Shown: positions 2,640 through 55,857 of the stretch, one piece after another
Position numbering within the stretch: the first letter of the stretch is position 1
How the letters are laid out: the number at the start of each line of letters is the position of its first letter
Position numbers and translations under genes: made by a program
The notes under the pieces: generated by a model
What the model saw: the letters and a program-made list of their open reading frames with translations, nothing else
Database searches by the model: none
What the model was told of the DNA's origin: nothing
Source: Escherichia coli
GTDB lineage: Bacteria > Pseudomonadota > Gammaproteobacteria > Enterobacterales > Enterobacteriaceae
Assembly (NCBI RefSeq): GCF_046105845.1
Contig: NZ_CP151004.1
Reading direction: 5' to 3' (one strand)
DNA length: 64,000 nucleotides

Positions 2640-3085
2640 AGAAGTGAAAAAACTGTGAGTAAGCGGGTGATAAATGGTAAAAGTCATCTTGCTATAACAA
2701 GGCTTGCAGTGGAATAATGAGGCCGTTTCCGTGTCCATCCTTGTTAAAACAAGAAATTTTACGGAATAACCCATTTTGCCCGACCGATCATCCACGCAGC
2801 AATGGCGTAAGACGTATTGATCTTTCAGGCAGTTAGCGGGCTGCGGGTTGCAGTCCTTACCGGTAGATGGAAATATTTCTGGAGAGTAATACCCAGTCTG
2901 TTTCTTTGATAATTGCGCTGTTTTTCCGCATGAAAAACGGGCAACCGACACTCTGCGCCTCTTTGAGCTGACGATAACCGTGAGGTTGGCGACGCGACTA
3001 GACACGAGGCCATCGGTTCACACCCGGAAAGGCGTTACTTTGCCCGCAGCTTAGTCGTCAATGTAAGAATAATGAGTAAGTTACG
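2640..3085 (+). promoter_or_regulatory. rne promoter and long structured 5' leader (RNase E autoregulation region); boundaries approximate
   Basis: About 450 bp of non-coding sequence directly upstream of rne; the long autoregulatory rne leader is established knowledge; promoter elements not mapped here. Confidence 0.4.
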
Positions 3086-24749: not shown

Positions 24750-24816
24750 AGGAAAACGTTTCCGCTTATCCTTTGTGTCCGGCAAAAACATCCCTTCAGC
24801 CGGAGCATAGAGATTA
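24750..24816 (+). promoter_or_regulatory. pyrC control region: PurR operator and leader hairpin
   Basis: AGGAAAACGTTTCCGC (24750-24765) matches the PurR box; CCGG...CCGG hairpin (24779-24803) overlaps the RBS, as in the pyrC start-site-dependent translational control. Confidence 0.55.
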
Positions 24817-35300: not shown

Positions 35301-35448
35301 AAAAAAATACCGGCATAACGCCGGTATTTTTATTGGCTCGTTGTTTTTGCCGAATGCGGCGTGAACGCCTTATCCGACCTACAAAATCTTGCAAAATCAA
35401 AACATTGCAGGAGCGATGTAGGCCTGATAAGCGTAGCGCATCAGGCAA
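35301..35448. repeat. Bidirectional terminator hairpin plus REP elements between yceK and opgH
   Basis: A-run, ACCGGCATAACGCCGGT hairpin, T-run (35301-35334), followed by REP palindromes GCCGAATGCGGCGTGAACGCCTTATCCGACCTAC and GTAGGCCTGATAAGCGTAGCGCATCAGGC. Confidence 0.55.
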
Positions 35449-44912: not shown

Positions 44913-45666
44913 GTTGTCACCCTGGACCTGGTCGTACATTTAAGAAATTAAATCATTTCAACTTGGTTGTTAACGCAACCTGTATTTTGTTAACGCTGCG
45001 TTACGATGGAAAGTATGTCTGCGGAAATATTTTTAATAACTCACCCGCGCGTTGTATTTTTCTTTTTTTGTTCATACCAAAGTATTAAAACCCACGTAAA
45101 TACGCTGTTATCTACGCAAAAAAATATTTTGTTTTCTTTTAAATCTCCGTTTTCCGCAATCAAAAATCACCAGACAGCCATTCTTCTTGCCCGTCGCTGA
45201 TTGCTGCGATATGTCTTGCGCACAAGCCGTGACAAACCTCGTCTTTTTGCAGTAAAAAATTGTCCACGGAGGTGTGAAGAAAAAACAAGAACGTTTTACA
45301 TGACGAAAGGACTACACCGAAATATTTTTTATATGCATTATTAGTAAGTTAGCACCATTTGTATGATTTTTTAAAATTGTGCAATAAAAACCAAATGTAC
45401 AACTTTTCTATCATTTCTAAACTTAATAAAACCTTAAGATTAACATTTTAATATAACGAGTTACATTTAGTTACATGTTTAACACTTGATTTAAGATTTG
45501 TAATGGCTAGATTGAAATCAGATGTAATCCATTAGTTTTATATTTTACCCATTTAGGGCTGATTTATTACTACACACAGCAGTGCAACATCTGTCAGTAC
45601 TTCTGGTGCTTCTATTTTAGAGGCAGCTGTCAGGTGTGCGATCAATAAAAAAAGCGGGGTTTCATC
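44913..45666. promoter_or_regulatory. csgBAC / csgDEFG divergent intergenic control region
   Basis: 754-bp AT-rich divergent region between csgB and csgD; known from the literature to carry sigma-S promoters, multiple transcription-factor sites and the long csgD 5' UTR targeted by sRNAs. Confidence 0.6.
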
Positions 45667-51211: not shown

Positions 51212-51299
51212 GGTGAGGTGTCCGAGTGGCTGAAGGAGCACGCCTGGAAAGTGTGTATACGGCAACGTATCGGGGGTTCGAATCCCCCCCTCACCGCCA
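51212..51299 (+). tRNA. serX: tRNA-Ser (anticodon GGA), 88 nt with long variable arm
   Basis: GGTGAGGTGTCCGAGTGGCTGAAGGAGCACGCCTGGAAAGTGTGTATACGGCAACGTATCGGGGGTTCGAATCCCCCCCTCACCGCCA: acceptor stem pairs, anticodon loop CT-GGA-AA, T-loop GGTTCGAATCC, 3' CCA encoded. Confidence 0.92.
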
Positions 51300-51925
51300 T
51301 CTTTAAAGAAGAGCTCGTACGAAGGTACGGGCTTTTTTTTCGTATATTGCACACACCGGGGGATGAGAAGCCCCGACCGGGGTTCGACAACTGGCGACAG
51401 CCAGTTGGACAGACCGTGAACGCAGTGAGCGGGCTGCCCGCAGGGCGAGCGAAGCGAGTCAATCCCCCCTCACCGCCATCTTTAAAGAAGAGCTCGTACG
51501 AAGGTACGGGCTTTTTTTTCGTATATTGCACACACCGGGGGATGAGAAGCCCCGACCGGGGTTCGACAACTGGCGACAGCCAGTTGGACAGACCGTGAAC
51601 GCAGTGAGCGGGCTGCCCGCAGGGCGAGCGAAGCGAGTCAATCCCCCCTCACCGCCATCTTTAAAGAAGAGCTCGTACGAAGGTACGGGCTTTTTTTTCG
51701 TATATTGCACACACCGGGGGATGAGAAGCCCCGACCGGGGTTCGACAACTGGCGACAGCCAGTTGGACAGACCGTGAACGCAGTGAGCGGGCTGCCCGCA
51801 GGGCGAGCGAAGCGAGTCAATCCCCCCCTCACCGCCATCTTTAAAGAAGAGCTCGTACGAAAGTACGGGCTTCTTTTTCGTATATTGCACACACCGGGGG
51901 GATGAGAAGCCCCGATCGGGGTACT
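51281..51925. repeat. Tandem direct repeats, 179-180 bp unit, about 3.5 copies, each beginning with a copy of the serX 3' end and terminator hairpin
   Basis: Units start at 51301, 51480, 51659 and 51839 (CTTTAAAGAAGAGCTCGTACGAAGGTACGGGCTTTTTTTTCG...); copies near-identical; last copy degenerate (GAAAG loop, CTTCTTTTT); each unit ends with AATCCCCCCTCACCGCCATC resembling the tRNA T-arm/acceptor 3' half. Confidence 0.9.
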
Positions 51926-51928
51926 TAG

Positions 51929-52615
51929 TTAATGCAACGGTTCACCCTTTGTCGCCGCGGCTAATGGGCGAATTTTGTCACGGGTATCCCAGACCGGAGG
52001 GATTTCATCCAATTTAGTGACAGAAGCTCGTACAAAAGGCACCCGTGCAATAGTCATAATCGTATTCAACCAACGGTCACGAATAATGCGATCTGCCCTT
52101 TCATGACTCGGATCATCCAGCTCAATAACACAGACTATTTTGTTGTTCTTCTTTGAAATCAGAACATAATCCATTGCCATTCCATTATAAATTGCAAAGA
52201 AACGCTTTCTTTCTTCTTCGCTAAACTCGGGTTGTTCTGGAAAGTTGATCAAGCGCCCCAGAGAGACCTGGCAATGGATATGACAATAATGTCCAAACCA
52301 TTTCTCCAGATTATCAAAATAGATTTTTTCACAACGCGTAATTAACCACTCTTTTCCTTCCAATAAAATACCTTCGGCAACCATTCCCTGGAACAACTCA
52401 TCTCGTTCTTGCCAACGAGAGTCACGATAGGTTTTCTGCGGTGTATAGCTCCTTGTCGACGCCTTAGCCGCAGGGGAAGTTGCAGAGGAAGGGACTGGTT
52501 GCGATCTAGTGATGATTACCGATGAGGCAACTTTTCGGAGTGTCAATTTTCTGGCAACAGCAAAACCGGCGACAAATGCAATTGTCAAACAAGTTACAAA
52601 AACCATAAAGCTCAT
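51929..52615 (-). CDS. Hypothetical membrane-anchored protein (228 aa), function unknown
   Basis: ATG at 52613-52615 with AGGTGA RBS 9 nt upstream; N-terminal TM helix MSFMVFVTCLTIAFVAGFAVA, Ser/Pro-rich linker, C-terminal soluble domain with HYCHIHC and IELDDPSHERADRIIRDR; occupies the position of ycdU in K-12 (from memory) but identity not verified. Confidence 0.6.
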   Translation of the reverse strand: MSFMVFVTCLTIAFVAGFAVARKLTLRKVASSVIITRSQPVPSSATSPAAKASTRSYTPQKTYRDSRWQERDELFQGMVAEGILLEGKEWLITRCEKIYFDNLEKWFGHYCHIHCQVSLGRLINFPEQPEFSEEERKRFFAIYNGMAMDYVLISKKNNKIVCVIELDDPSHERADRIIRDRWLNTIMTIARVPFVRASVTKLDEIPPVWDTRDKIRPLAAATKGEPLH

Positions 52616-53127
52616 AATTAATCTTCACCTATCCATGTTGATTATATTTCATTACTAACGCTACTCGCTGTAGCGAGTTACATGCCAACAATTCAACGAA
52701 CTATATATAGTTAGTATCATGTTTTGATTATTACAACCATCCCTATTTTACCATTGCGGCTTGCCGTCCACAAAAAATAACAACACACAATATTAGCTGA
52801 AGAATTAATTAAGATTAACCTTATATTTTTAATATTATCCCTAAAAAATAAAATCAGGAGAATATATTCGGTGTTAATCAGTCAGTCAAATTATGGCCCA
52901 TTGCTGATTAAACCTCATACGCAAAATTGGCACCAGACCTCCTGTACAGGTTGAATGGCTGGAAAAAGATAGGCAAAAAACTCTCCGCGCTGGCGGCATT
53001 ACATTGGTCGGGTGCTATGACGAAAAATGCCTGGTAAAAGCATCTAAACCAGAATTCATTTCAGCTTATCAACACGCTCAAAGTCGCCCCCCAGAACGTT
53101 AACCTGAAGTGAAAGTCTTTGCTGTTA

Positions 53128-53159
53128 ATGAAATAAAACAAAGCCCGGTTCGCCCGGGC
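53128..53159 (-). terminator. Rho-independent terminator of phoH
   Basis: Minus-strand hairpin GCCCGG-GCGAA-CCGGGC followed by TTTGTTTTATTT, 20 bp after the phoH stop. Confidence 0.5.
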
Positions 53160-53177
53160 TCTGTACCGATAATACAC

Positions 53178-54101
53178 TTAACTGTATGCATGTAGCGTAC
53201 GTTGGCAAAGTGCCGAACGTACGCAATCCTCTTTACCGAATCGGACGATCCCGACCATTTCATCTTCTTCGAAACGTTCCAGCGCGTCACTTAATCCGGA
53301 TCGCACGCCGCGAGGCAAATCGCATTGCGTGATATCACCGTTGACGATAACCGTCACGTTCTCCCCGAGGCGGGTTAAAAACATTTTCATTTGCGCGGCA
53401 GTCACATTCTGCGCCTCGTCAAGAATGACGACTGCATTTTCAAAGGTACGTCCACGCATATAGGCGAACGGCGCAATTTCCACCTTCCCTATTTCCGGTC
53501 GCAGGCAGTACTGCATAAAGGAAGCCCCTAAGCGCCGGACCAGCACGTCGTAGACCGGGCGAAAATAGGGAGCAAACTTTTCTGCGATATCACCAGGTAA
53601 GAAGCCAAGATCTTCATCGGCTTGCAGAACTGGACGGGTGACGATAATCCTGTCGACATCCTTATGTATCAGGGCCTCTGCCGCTTTTGCTGCGCTGATC
53701 CAGGTTTTTCCGCACCCGGCTTCGCCCGTGGCGAATATCAGCTGCTTACTCTCAATAGCCTTCAGATAGTGCAATTGCGCTTCATTTCGCGCGAGGATGG
53801 GCGAGGTATCGCGACTGTCGCGGGCCATACCAATGGCTTCTACGCCGCTCATCTGCACAAGCGAGGTGACCGATTCTTCTTCACGCTGCTTATGGCTGCG
53901 CGAATCCCGTCTCAGCACACGTTTTGCCTCGCGACGAGCTTTGATCACTGCTTTTTGTCTTCCCATGGAGAGCACCTTGAGTTGTTTGTATTCATCACAC
54001 GCGCCGTTGGCAGCGCGATTATGCGCACGAACATCAGAGGGTTGGCTTCCTTGTAAGCCATAGTTTGCTTTTGGATAAAATGCCGAAAAACGGCTACGCA
54101 C
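53178..54101 (-). CDS. phoH: Phosphate starvation-inducible ATPase PhoH; N-terminal extent uncertain
   Basis: Longest in-frame ORF is 307 codons from GTG 54101 (first ATG at 53966, MGRQKAVIKARREAKR..., giving 262 aa); Walker A GEAGCGKT and PhoH core conserved; see finding on a possible 5' frameshift. Confidence 0.85.
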   Translation of the reverse strand: MRSRFSAFYPKANYGLQGSQPSDVRAHNRAANGACDEYKQLKVLSMGRQKAVIKARREAKRVLRRDSRSHKQREEESVTSLVQMSGVEAIGMARDSRDTSPILARNEAQLHYLKAIESKQLIFATGEAGCGKTWISAAKAAEALIHKDVDRIIVTRPVLQADEDLGFLPGDIAEKFAPYFRPVYDVLVRRLGASFMQYCLRPEIGKVEIAPFAYMRGRTFENAVVILDEAQNVTAAQMKMFLTRLGENVTVIVNGDITQCDLPRGVRSGLSDALERFEEDEMVGIVRFGKEDCVRSALCQRTLHAYS

Positions 54102-54389
54102 ACCGTTTGCGGCGTCGGTAACACGAGTAAAGAGAGGAAGTGAGAAAAATACAGAGTGACGAAGTTGCTACCGGAGGAGAAATCTCCGCGAGTGGTGGAG
54201 CCTTGCTTAACAAAACATTGTCCAGAACAGGACGTTACCATCCGCGATCTCCATAGTGACTGACTATCACTGCCGGGAACTTCCGCTGCTACTTAATAAG
54301 TACAACAGATCTCGCATTCATTGCAACAATATATTCACTTATATTTAACTACAAAACACCATTTCAGTGACATTAGTTTCTACTGGAAA

Positions 54390-54408
54390 GATGACAGAGT
54401 GATGACAG
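54390..54408 (-). promoter_or_regulatory. Pho box (PhoB binding site) upstream of phoH
   Basis: Minus-strand CTGTCATCACTCTGTCATC: two direct CTGTCAT repeats with the 11-bp periodicity of the Pho box consensus. Confidence 0.55.
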
Positions 54409-54439
54409 TGATGAAAAAAGCTGTGTGCTTTCAGCAGGA

Positions 54440-54575
54440 TTCGCATCAGGCATCAGCGCACGAACGCCGGATGCGGCGTGAACGCCTGATCCAGCCTACC
54501 AAACCCGCACCGATTGTAGGCATGATAAGACGCGCAAGCGTCGCATCAGGCATCTGCGCACAAATGCCTTATACG
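54440..54575. repeat. REP/BIME cluster between phoH promoter region and efeB
   Basis: Several REP-type palindromes (GCATCAGGCATCAGCGCACGAACGCCGGATGCGGCGTGAACGCCTGATCCAGCCTAC etc.). Confidence 0.55.
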
Positions 54576-54585
54576 CCTAAAAACA

Positions 54586-55857
54586 TTAAACCCGCAATAA
54601 CGCGCTTCCGAGATAATCGTTCGCGTTCTTCACTCCCGGCAGCGCAAAGAAATAGCCGCCACCGATAGGTTTGACATATTCCTCCAGCGCCTCGCCATTC
54701 AACCTTTTTTGTACTGTCAGGAAGCCCTTTTCCAGATCGTGTTGGTAGCAGACAAACAGTAGCCCCATATCCAGTTGTCCGGAGTTGGTGACGCCCAACG
54801 AATAACTGTAGCCACGACGCAGCATCAGGCTGGACTCACTCTCCGCCGTGCGGGGATTCGCCAGCCGGATATGGCTGTCCAGCGCAATCACCTTCCCTTC
54901 CGGATCGCTAGCGTAATCGGGAACATCATGCTCATGCTGCATGCCCAGCGGCGCACCGGTTTGCTTATCACGACCAAATATCGTCTGCTGCTCTTTCAGC
55001 GGCGTTCTGTCCCAAAATTCCACTCGAAACTGAATCAAGCGTACTGCCTGATAGCTGCCACCGATTGTCCACGCAGGCTCCTGCTGATCTGCCGTCACCC
55101 ACACCACTTTTTGCATCAACTTATCATTCTGGCTATCGGGATTGGCAGTGCCGTCTTTGAAACCCAGCAAATTAATCGGCGTCTCTTTGCCTTTACTACG
55201 CGCCGCGTGATCGGAAATAAACCCTTCCCGCTTCCAGCGCACACTGAGCAAATCCGGCGTGTGTTTGATGATATCGCGCAGCGCATGGATCACCGTGTCC
55301 TGGGTGTTGGCGCAAATCTGTAGCAACACATCACCATGACATAACGCCGCATCCAGCGAGTCGTTGGGGAAACGCGTCATCTTCTGCAGCTTTTTTGGCA
55401 TCTGTGGCGCAAGGCCAAAGCGCTCATTAAACAATGAGTGACCCACCGATAACGTGATGGTGAGATTATCGGGCGCAATGTAGCCGCCAAGAATGCCGGA
55501 ATCGAGTGGTGGCAGGCGCGGATTTGGCGTTTCTGGTGCTGCTCCGCCCTGAGTCAGAAAAGCAAAACGCTGAGTCAACAAGCGAAACAACCGCTCAAGA
55601 TCGGCTTTATCGCTGGCAAGCACATCAAACGCCACCAGCATCATTGCGGCCTGTTGTGGCGTCAGGATCCCTGCCTGATGCTCACCATAAAACGGCTGTT
55701 TCTCATTGCGTGCATCCGGTGAAAGCGTACCCGGCGCACTTTGCGTTTTTTGTGCATGAGCGACCGGACAACTTCCCGCCAGCGCCAGTGCACCAATCCC
55801 TTTCAGTAAACGTCGGCGTGACGGTTCATTCACGCCGTTTTCATCTTTATACTGCAT
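54586..55857 (-). CDS. efeB: Dye-decolorising (DyP-type) haem peroxidase / deferrochelatase EfeB, Tat-secreted
   Basis: 423-aa ORF with twin-arginine signal [23 protein letters not shown]. Confidence 0.93.

Follow-up and report, generated by a model that had tools for sequence, protein, structure and literature searches.

Does the phoH gene in this stretch of Escherichia coli DNA carry a frameshift, or does PhoH begin elsewhere than the K-12 annotation suggests? The window, by which we mean the whole 64,000-nucleotide (nt) stretch of contig NZ_CP151004.1 (assembly GCF_046105845.1) that was analyzed, contains phoH on its minus strand. The longest open reading frame (ORF) runs from a GTG codon and encodes 307 amino acids (53178..54101), the product from the first ATG (53966) has 262 amino acids and starts MGRQKAVIKA, and the frame is closed upstream by a TAG at 54168-54170. 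A 98-codon ORF beginning with ATG overlaps it in another frame, from 54241 down to 53945. A first-pass annotation, made from the letters alone, had reported these features, and all of its coordinates agree with the ORF table and the sequence. It had also given the length of K-12 PhoH as 354 amino acids, counted 1,064 nt from the ATG at 54241 to the end of phoH, and suggested that one base is missing, unless a homopolymer had been misread or the reference length was wrong. The interval is indeed 1,064 nt and the reference length was right: the curated K-12 gene (b1020, NC_000913.3 1084992..1086056) is 1,065 nt long.

We find that the missing base is real, and that the window carries a benign allele of an unbroken gene, because the deletion only unlinks a poorly conserved upstream frame from an intact 262-residue PhoH. 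In our reading, which we consider probable from comparison of sequences, the upstream codons form a translated, structured leader whose fusion to PhoH is toggled by 1-nt insertions and deletions (indels). We call alleles fused if the upstream ATG is in frame with phoH, and split if it is not. Negative and positive positions count from the core start, the ATG at 53966. The features concerned are these, where PGAP is the NCBI Prokaryotic Genome Annotation Pipeline:

53178..53966, minus strand: phoH core coding sequence, 262 amino acids, the conserved protein and the RefSeq/PGAP gene model
53945..54241, minus strand: leader ORF of 98 codons, from ATG 54241 to TGA 53947-53945
53973..53978, minus strand: core Shine-Dalgarno AAGGTG, 6 nt upstream of ATG 53966
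53993..54023, minus strand: covarying hairpin CAU..CGCGCUG-ccaa-CGGCGCG..AUG, 27-57 nt 5' of the core start (alignment A4)
54043..54060, minus strand: invariant hairpin UGGCUU-acaagg-AAGCCA, in the alignment fold and the single-sequence fold
54099..54101, minus strand: GTG of the mechanically called 307-codon ORF, with no Shine-Dalgarno upstream
54144..54145, minus strand: site of the 1-nt deletion relative to fused alleles, right after the T5 run 54149-54145
54168..54170, minus strand: TAG closing the PhoH frame upstream, at -204
54172..54188, minus strand: hairpin CGGAG-auuucuc-CUCCG (alignment fold A3)
54220..54233, minus strand: small hairpin GUCC-uguucu-GGAC, just past the leader start
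54249..54252, minus strand: leader Shine-Dalgarno GGAG, 7 nt upstream of ATG 54241
54390..54408, minus strand: Pho box (predicted PhoB site) CTGTCATCACTCTGTCATC of the phosphate-regulated phoH promoter

A common 1-nt deletion splits the long phoH reading frame

In K-12 MG1655 an unbroken 354-codon ORF runs from the homologous ATG (1760..2824 in L001, our extract of that assembly). Aligned with K-12-type alleles, the window lacks one base between 54145 and 54144, just past the T5 run (column 357 of alignment A1, column 102 of alignment A5), within what is annotated in K-12 as the PhoH N-terminus. In A1 the flanks are nearly identical to K-12 and enclose a patch of about 115 nt (approximately 54226-54109) that is one base shorter on balance and carries about 25 substitutions. 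This MAFFT alignment made the patch look diffusely hypervariable, with several indels; in A5, where fused alleles nearer to the window (from strains PK5 and SCPM-O-B-8794) and further Escherichia species are included, it comes down to one 1-nt gap plus substitutions. The first 33 or so codons of the leader ORF read in the K-12 frame (MVTSC.G...SSGS..VTL.F); beyond them the ORF continues in the +1 frame and ends 22 nt inside the PhoH core ORF. The TAG at 54170-54168 is out of frame both in the leader ORF and in the long ORF of K-12.

The deletion is widespread. A query of 61 nt spanning it, run against 5,426 complete E. coli genomes, matched 1,964, and in 1,945 the identity was 99% or more. With a 323-nt leader query, 1,965 genomes matched at 95% identity or more and 3,451 at 90-95%; among the matches sampled, all 22 with at least 98.5% identity had a length of 323 nt, and all 37 at 92.0-93.2% had the K-12-like length of 324 nt. 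About 36% of E. coli genomes are thus in the split state and about 64% in the fused state, and the same deletion context occurs in the representative of a separate Escherichia species (L007). The window carries a common natural split allele, and the 354-codon ORF of K-12 is the fused state of the same region.

Two other E. coli genomes have insertion sequences (IS) at this locus. In strain EC596 (L087, NZ_CP156718.1, 1723-3133) an IS3-family element sits in the leader right after the invariant hairpin (at the junction GGAAGCCAAC/IS3), parting the upstream start and the Pho box from the core, and PGAP still calls a 262-amino acid phoH. In strain OHT76-1 (L085, NZ_CP135244.1, 1197-1722) the 3' end of phoH is cut by an IS21-family element (IS100kyp) and the gene is annotated as a partial pseudogene, which is a genuine disruption and contrasts with the split allele.

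The conserved PhoH protein is the 262-residue core

The deletion lies wholly in a part of the locus that is counted as coding only by the curated 354-residue K-12 model. PGAP called the 262-residue protein, from the start equivalent to 53966, in fused and split strains alike: in the K-12 MG1655 assembly (L001), in L002 and L003, in HB-Coli0 (L084) and in PK5 (L086). The first-pass annotation had held that PhoH references starting there below an identical upstream sequence would argue against a frameshift, and this is what these annotations show, with an identical upstream sequence over the aligned part in L003 and a single substitution in L002. What the locus presents is a discrepancy in start sites and annotation (354 residues in the curated entry, 262 in PGAP) together with a natural fused/split polymorphism.

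The NCBIfam equivalog model for PhoH, NF007827, has 253 positions, which fall on residues 101-353 of the K-12 354-residue ORF and on residues 54-306 of the 307-residue ORF, both with 510-511 bits. The window protein matches all of them (1-253 of 253) with 511.5 bits against a cutoff of 380, and PF02562 matches with 258 bits over the C-terminal 205 residues. Both P-loop NTPase motifs, the Walker A sequence GEAGCGKT and the Walker B-like sequence ILDEAQN, are intact and do not vary in alignment A6. Across the 80 Enterobacteriaceae loci of the survey described below the core is 93-100% identical in amino acid sequence to that of the window. In the fused species representatives its pN/pS (the ratio of nonsynonymous to synonymous differences per site) is 0.06, with pS 0.53; the ratio is also 0.06 in split lineages. 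At every surveyed locus the core begins ATGGGAAGA, with AAGGTGC upstream at a fixed spacing, and AAGGTGC is invariant in all 80 distinct aligned sequences. By these sequence measures, the 262-residue core is the conserved PhoH, and it is intact and under strong purifying selection.

A frameshifted pseudogene would be disrupted inside sequence that is conserved as protein. Here the affected segment lies outside NF007827 and has a pN/pS of about 0.9, and the core is uninterrupted. Nor does the allele look like a rare lesion under relaxed selection, given its frequency of 36% and the core ratio of 0.06. The 307-residue product was also considered as a candidate and rejected: GTG 54101 has no Shine-Dalgarno, and the start is not conserved, because other split lineages have a stop in this frame at -129 or nearer to the core start. 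GTG 54101 is probably not a real start.

Fused and split arrangements alternate among Enterobacteriaceae

One scan of species-representative genomes yielded 80 Enterobacteriaceae loci, and counts over all loci refer to a total of 86. The upstream ATG and its Shine-Dalgarno block GGAGATCGCGnATG are present wherever the sequence reaches far enough upstream to show them (86 of 86 loci), at 270-282 nt before the core start. In 56 loci the ATG is in frame with phoH, giving ORFs of 352-356 codons; this fused group includes K-12, Enterobacter, Klebsiella, Kosakonia, Buttiauxella, Pluralibacter, Cedecea and Franconibacter. Another 25 loci have the ATG at -275 or -272 and an ORF of 97-98 codons ending at +22; among them are the window, other E. 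coli, E. albertii, E. whittamii, most Citrobacter, Salmonella (where the split state was the rule among the loci sampled) and one Enterobacter cloacae. In the remaining five, from Pseudescherichia and Kluyvera, the ATG is at -278 and the ORF has 84 codons, ending at -23.

The frame is shifted at different places. In window-type alleles the shift lies at the T5 run 54149-54145 (about -179), with the frame markers -204 and -143 on either side. A T-run at about -124 is the site in E. coli E69, E. albertii, E. whittamii, Citrobacter and Salmonella. Separate events are seen in Citrobacter amalonaticus S646, in E. cloacae M-7 and in the Kluyvera/Pseudescherichia group. There are at least two independent deletion sites within Escherichia, and across genera the aligned sequences imply at least five independent switches between the fused and split states. 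Because the outgroups Citrobacter, Salmonella and E. albertii have the -124 gap, parsimony on alignments A4 and A5 raises the possibility that the fused state of K-12 is a secondary re-fusion and the state of the window a further deletion.

One surveyed locus, L013 (CACSKA010000011.1), is titled 'Chryseobacterium sp. 18061' and has an Enterobacteriaceae-type phoH locus with 95% protein identity. Since it hardly differs from 'Citrobacter sp. 18056', a record of the same study, the assembly is probably mislabelled or contaminated.

The upstream frame is kept open and its peptide is not conserved

In the 54 fused species representatives, the N-terminal extension has a pN/pS of 0.88 (pN 0.32, pS 0.36), with values of 0.96, 0.83 and 0.96 in its successive thirds; for split-type leader ORFs the ratio is 0.82. 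That pS is lower in the extension (0.36) than in the core (0.53) indicates constraint on the nucleotides themselves. The peptide motifs that look conserved (SCTGQ, RGG..SGSDF, GLQGSQ, AHNRA) coincide with conserved RNA hairpins. The 98-residue upstream product has no Pfam or NCBIfam match, and AlphaFold2, run on the 354-residue form with a shallow alignment of 55 sequences, gave a mean predicted local distance difference test score of 36.5, a value that says nothing either way about disorder in the extension. By the substitution ratios and the family searches, the 92-98 upstream codons do not encode a conserved protein domain, and their amino acids drift almost neutrally.

The reading frame behaves differently from the peptide. 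Between the upstream ATG and -27, the 86 loci contain no stop codon in the frame of the ATG; the remaining two frames have 259 and 464 and are stop-free in only 8 and 0 loci. Even in the rapidly diverging middle segment (codons 25-66), among 27 representatives with less than 70% identity, the ATG frame is stop-free in all 27 and the other frames in 11 and 2, when about 16% of composition-matched shuffles are stop-free. In several split lineages the abandoned PhoH-frame segment has gained stops (at -108, -105, -96 and -45/-42), and the new frame has gained none. This is what a leader ORF would be expected to show, namely a conserved start and Shine-Dalgarno and a frame that is open to the main start regardless of the peptide, and the pattern is hard to explain unless ribosomes from the upstream ATG have to read to near the core start, whatever they make on the way. 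PGAP places no annotation over the leader ORF. In the protein database its split form appears as an unnamed or 'hypothetical' protein from E. coli, Citrobacter and Enterobacter, nearly always of 98 residues, a length to be read with the preference of gene callers for long ORFs in mind.

The leader RNA is predicted to be structured

The alignment fold over -140 to +25 used 80 distinct sequences (A4), and a second alignment (A3) covered 25 species. The covarying hairpin at 54023-53993 has three pairs with compensatory CG/UA exchanges in 6-18 sequences; in the A4 fold 97.7% of cells are paired, compared with 24-55% in slid controls, and its covariation score was reached by none of 500 shuffles. 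The invariant hairpin at 54060-54043 has pairs that are identical in 79-80 of the 80 sequences and so offer no test by covariation; its single-sequence fold has -7.2 kcal/mol (z -2.7). In A3, the four pairs of the hairpin at 54233-54220 are kept in 24-25 of the 25 species, a single change among them being compensatory (-6.1 kcal/mol and z -2.7 when folded as a single sequence), and those of the hairpin at 54188-54172 are kept with 1-3 compensatory changes at four positions, with a weak single-sequence fold (z -1.1). In the 80-sequence fold an upstream AGCA is predicted to pair with UGCU overlapping the 3' end of the core Shine-Dalgarno, through invariant columns only. A long-range pairing between AUGGAGA in the leader and UCUCCAU at the core start, suggested by the single-sequence fold, was rejected: other genera carry UAUCCAU, which breaks the pairs.

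No Rfam 15 covariance model matched 53945-54420, even at E <= 1. The invariant hairpin UGGCUUACAAGGAAGCCA (54043-54060, minus strand) has ACAAGGA at the edge of its loop, which we take to resemble the high-affinity CsrA consensus RUACARGGAUGU; a literature search for a link between CsrA and phoH returned nothing relevant.

Promoter signals

Kim and colleagues are said to have reported in 1993 that phoH has two promoters, P1 and P2. A sigma-70 consensus scan of 53900-54600 gave no usable match for placing them. The first-pass annotation had placed a Pho box at 54390-54408, and this segment, CTGTCATCACTCTGTCATC, does include the 18-nt PhoB motif TGTCATCACTCTGTCATC published for phoH from chromatin immunoprecipitation sequencing (PMC10294691). 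It is unchanged between the window and K-12 in A1, and its place upstream of phoH would, as a sequence feature, put the gene in the Pho regulon. Binding of PhoB at the Pho box activates phoH (PMC10294691), and footprints of phosphorylated ArcA overlap P2 (PMC3798270).

A proposed translated leader and the alternatives to it

Both translation starts and the signals for transcription are preserved in the window. The deletion puts the upstream start (ATG 54241 with its GGAG) out of frame with PhoH. The probable consequence is that this strain makes only the 262-residue form, from ATG 53966 and a PhoB-dependent promoter. Ribosomes would also start at ATG 54241, translate the structured leader and stop at 53947-53945, and this traffic of ribosomes over the leader would be what selection preserves. 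Translation of the leader may avert premature transcription termination or decay in the leader of about 275 nt, or it may open the structure at the core ribosome binding site or permit termination and reinitiation. In fused alleles the same traffic would continue into PhoH and give a 354-residue species beside the internally initiated one. The choice between fused and split outcomes would be close to selectively neutral, toggled by 1-nt indels.

For the family as a whole we propose, as a tentative but serious possibility, that Enterobacteriaceae phoH has a structured leader of 84-98 codons traversed by ribosomes, in which selection acts on translation and hairpins and not on the peptide, so that the frame can flip. 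The K-12 N-terminus would then be a regulatory leader controlling PhoH through coupling or by unmasking its ribosome binding site, possibly with an RNA-binding factor at the ACAAGGA hairpin.

Several points weigh against the idea of a translated leader. Kim and colleagues reportedly saw a 39-kDa product in maxicells, which would mean that the fused form is made in K-12 and might have a role of its own. The surveyed loci are phylogenetically related, and the stop-avoidance statistics overstate their independence; the alternative frame is open by chance in some fused species (8 of the 86 loci), which weakens the case that openness after a frameshift is selected. The predicted pairing of the core Shine-Dalgarno with upstream AGCA/CCU involves invariant positions and shows no covariation, its CCU-AGG pairs are not kept in the 80-sequence fold, and the leader folded as a whole is barely more stable than its shuffles (z -1.7). 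The text of the Ribo-RET (retapamulin-assisted ribosome profiling) study discussed below gives no coordinate for the internal start in phoH (bioRxiv 10.1101/520783).

If the 354-residue protein were instead a second proteoform with its own role, for example through an unstructured N-terminal tail affecting localization, stability or partner binding, then the lineage of the window, Salmonella and Citrobacter would have lost it and kept the short form. The curated K-12 annotation has 354 residues, the fused ORF is open in 54 species (352-356 residues) with indels only in multiples of three, and Ribo-RET treats the downstream site as an internal start within a longer primary ORF. We nevertheless find the loss of an isoform rather unlikely: pN/pS is about 0.9 in all three thirds of the extension, the conserved 'motifs' fall on RNA hairpins, and at least five losses of the fusion have left the upstream ATG, its Shine-Dalgarno and an open frame in place in all 30 split loci, something that a requirement for fusion leaves unexplained. 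The nucleotide-level conservation, the hairpins and the neutral amino acid evolution would suit an untranslated, structured 5' untranslated region with an unused ATG, its open frame a by-product of conservation. That is very unlikely, however, when the poorly conserved middle third is stop-free in the ATG frame of 27 of 27 diverged representatives (11 and 2 in the other frames) and the start codon and GGAG are universally kept at optimal spacing.

The notion that PhoH needs all 354 residues, and that the strain is a natural phoH mutant or pseudogene, draws on the interruption of the ORF relative to the curated K-12 model. It is highly improbable: the core keeps its own invariant Shine-Dalgarno and ATG, its pN/pS is as low in split lineages as elsewhere, NF007827 excludes the extension yet scores 511 bits over its cutoff of 380, PGAP annotates a normal 262-residue phoH and no pseudogene in identical sequences, and the frequency of the allele in E. 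coli is 36%. Fused PhoH could also be restored in split strains by a programmed -1 frameshift or by transcriptional slippage, for example at C-AAA-AAG (53954-53948), where the leader frame, across core codons 3-8, is GAC AAA AAG CAG TGA, ribosomes slipping by -1 at AAA-AAG would pass into the PhoH frame, and the AAGGTG Shine-Dalgarno lies about 16 nt upstream. Recoding of this kind is scarcely credible, though, since no frame of the leader ORF contains a canonical X XXY YYZ heptamer and all that occurs there are relaxed quadruplets (C-AAA-AAG, for example). Fused species have CAAAAAG just as split ones do, one split lineage (L056) has CAGAAAG in its place, and we found no stimulatory structure downstream. 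A sequencing or assembly error can for practical purposes be dismissed. The deletion does adjoin a T5 run, but the identical 61-nt context recurs in 1,945 complete genomes, which were produced in many laboratories and on many platforms, as well as in the species representative L007. The runs of six to eight A to which the first-pass annotation had pointed at 54080-54150 do not exist; the longest homopolymers there are of 5 nt, at 54149-54145 and 54090-54086. Of the first-pass interpretation, then, a real 1-nt deletion that splits a 354-codon ORF stands, and neither misreading of the sequence nor damage to PhoH does.

Significance

The 354-residue K-12 PhoH and the 262-residue RefSeq PhoH are two states of one locus, the 307-residue GTG product is probably an artefact of ORF finding, and split alleles should not be flagged as pseudogenes. 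With about 36% split and 64% fused alleles in one species, and at least five independent switches across genera, the locus offers a natural experiment on the role of a long upstream ORF, which may count through its peptide or just as a path that ribosomes travel. The results also point to an undescribed RNA element that is conserved, has hairpins that covary and belongs to no Rfam family, located in the leader of a poorly understood gene of the Pho regulon. If the leader does control translation of phoH, the level of PhoH would vary with translation status and not with PhoB alone.

Neighbouring features

Antisense to the 3' end of phoH (53183-53376, plus strand) there is a match to Rfam Ysr251 (RF02855, an antisense small RNA defined in Yersinia) with 194 bits against a gathering score of 100, which may just reflect the high conservation of the phoH coding sequence. 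In the spacer between efeB and phoH, 54456-54496 and 54519-54592 (minus strand) have sub-threshold matches to naRNA4, which derives from repetitive extragenic palindromic (REP) elements, and contain REP-like palindromic repeats; a mechanically called 115-codon ORF (54321-54668, plus strand) spans these repeats and is probably spurious. Downstream of phoH, the region 51212-53177 contains a 228-codon ORF (51929-52615, minus strand) and a transfer RNA (tRNA) gene (51212-51296, plus strand). It resembles strain Z1323HEC0423, where a DUF2726 protein, the small RNA RtT and tRNA-Ser are annotated. The pgaABCD operon, next to phoH in K-12, is absent at this position. Five RNAs expected in E. coli reach their Rfam gathering scores:

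696-864: SraB
2725-3061: rne 5' UTR element
24767-24816: PyrC leader
35383-35425: ES036
45520-45611: ES056

Comparison with known systems

In E. coli, phoH is one of the genes for which Ribo-RET reports that an in-frame internal start is conserved and that conservation at synonymous sites is raised locally (bioRxiv 10.1101/520783), and the conservation that we see around 53966 fits that description. The window differs in that its two starts are in different frames, so that they belong to an upstream ORF and a main ORF and not to two proteoforms; the fused/split polymorphism is not described in the text of that paper. We found no paper on this polymorphism or on the phoH leader, and phoH is not mentioned in the literature on N-terminomics and proteoforms that we examined.

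The locus shares with K-12 phoH (b1020, 'ATP-binding protein PhoH') its position between efeB and, in K-12, pgaD, an identical Pho box, both ATGs and both Shine-Dalgarnos, and almost identical 262 C-terminal residues; it differs by the base lost after the T5 run and the approximately 25 substitutions in the 115-nt patch. From the RefSeq/PGAP PhoH (WP_000533536.1 / WP_000533522.1; NF007827) the product of 53966-53178 does not differ at all. WP_000533536.1 is annotated on L003, whose leader is identical to the window over the aligned part, and on L002, with one difference.

Translationally coupled upstream or leader ORFs are known in E. coli from uof-fur and secM-secA. The phoH leader resembles them in having a conserved upstream ORF with its own Shine-Dalgarno, ending near or overlapping the main start, and apparently also in the structured RNA around the main ribosome binding site and, as in the uof type, a largely irrelevant peptide. 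We identified no arrest motif or sensing function in it, and any coupling would be hypothetical. The phoH leader is also unusually long (84-98 codons), and most species have it joined in frame to the gene that it precedes. We regard it as a modestly novel variant of upstream-ORF and alternative-start arrangements, and not as a major surprise.

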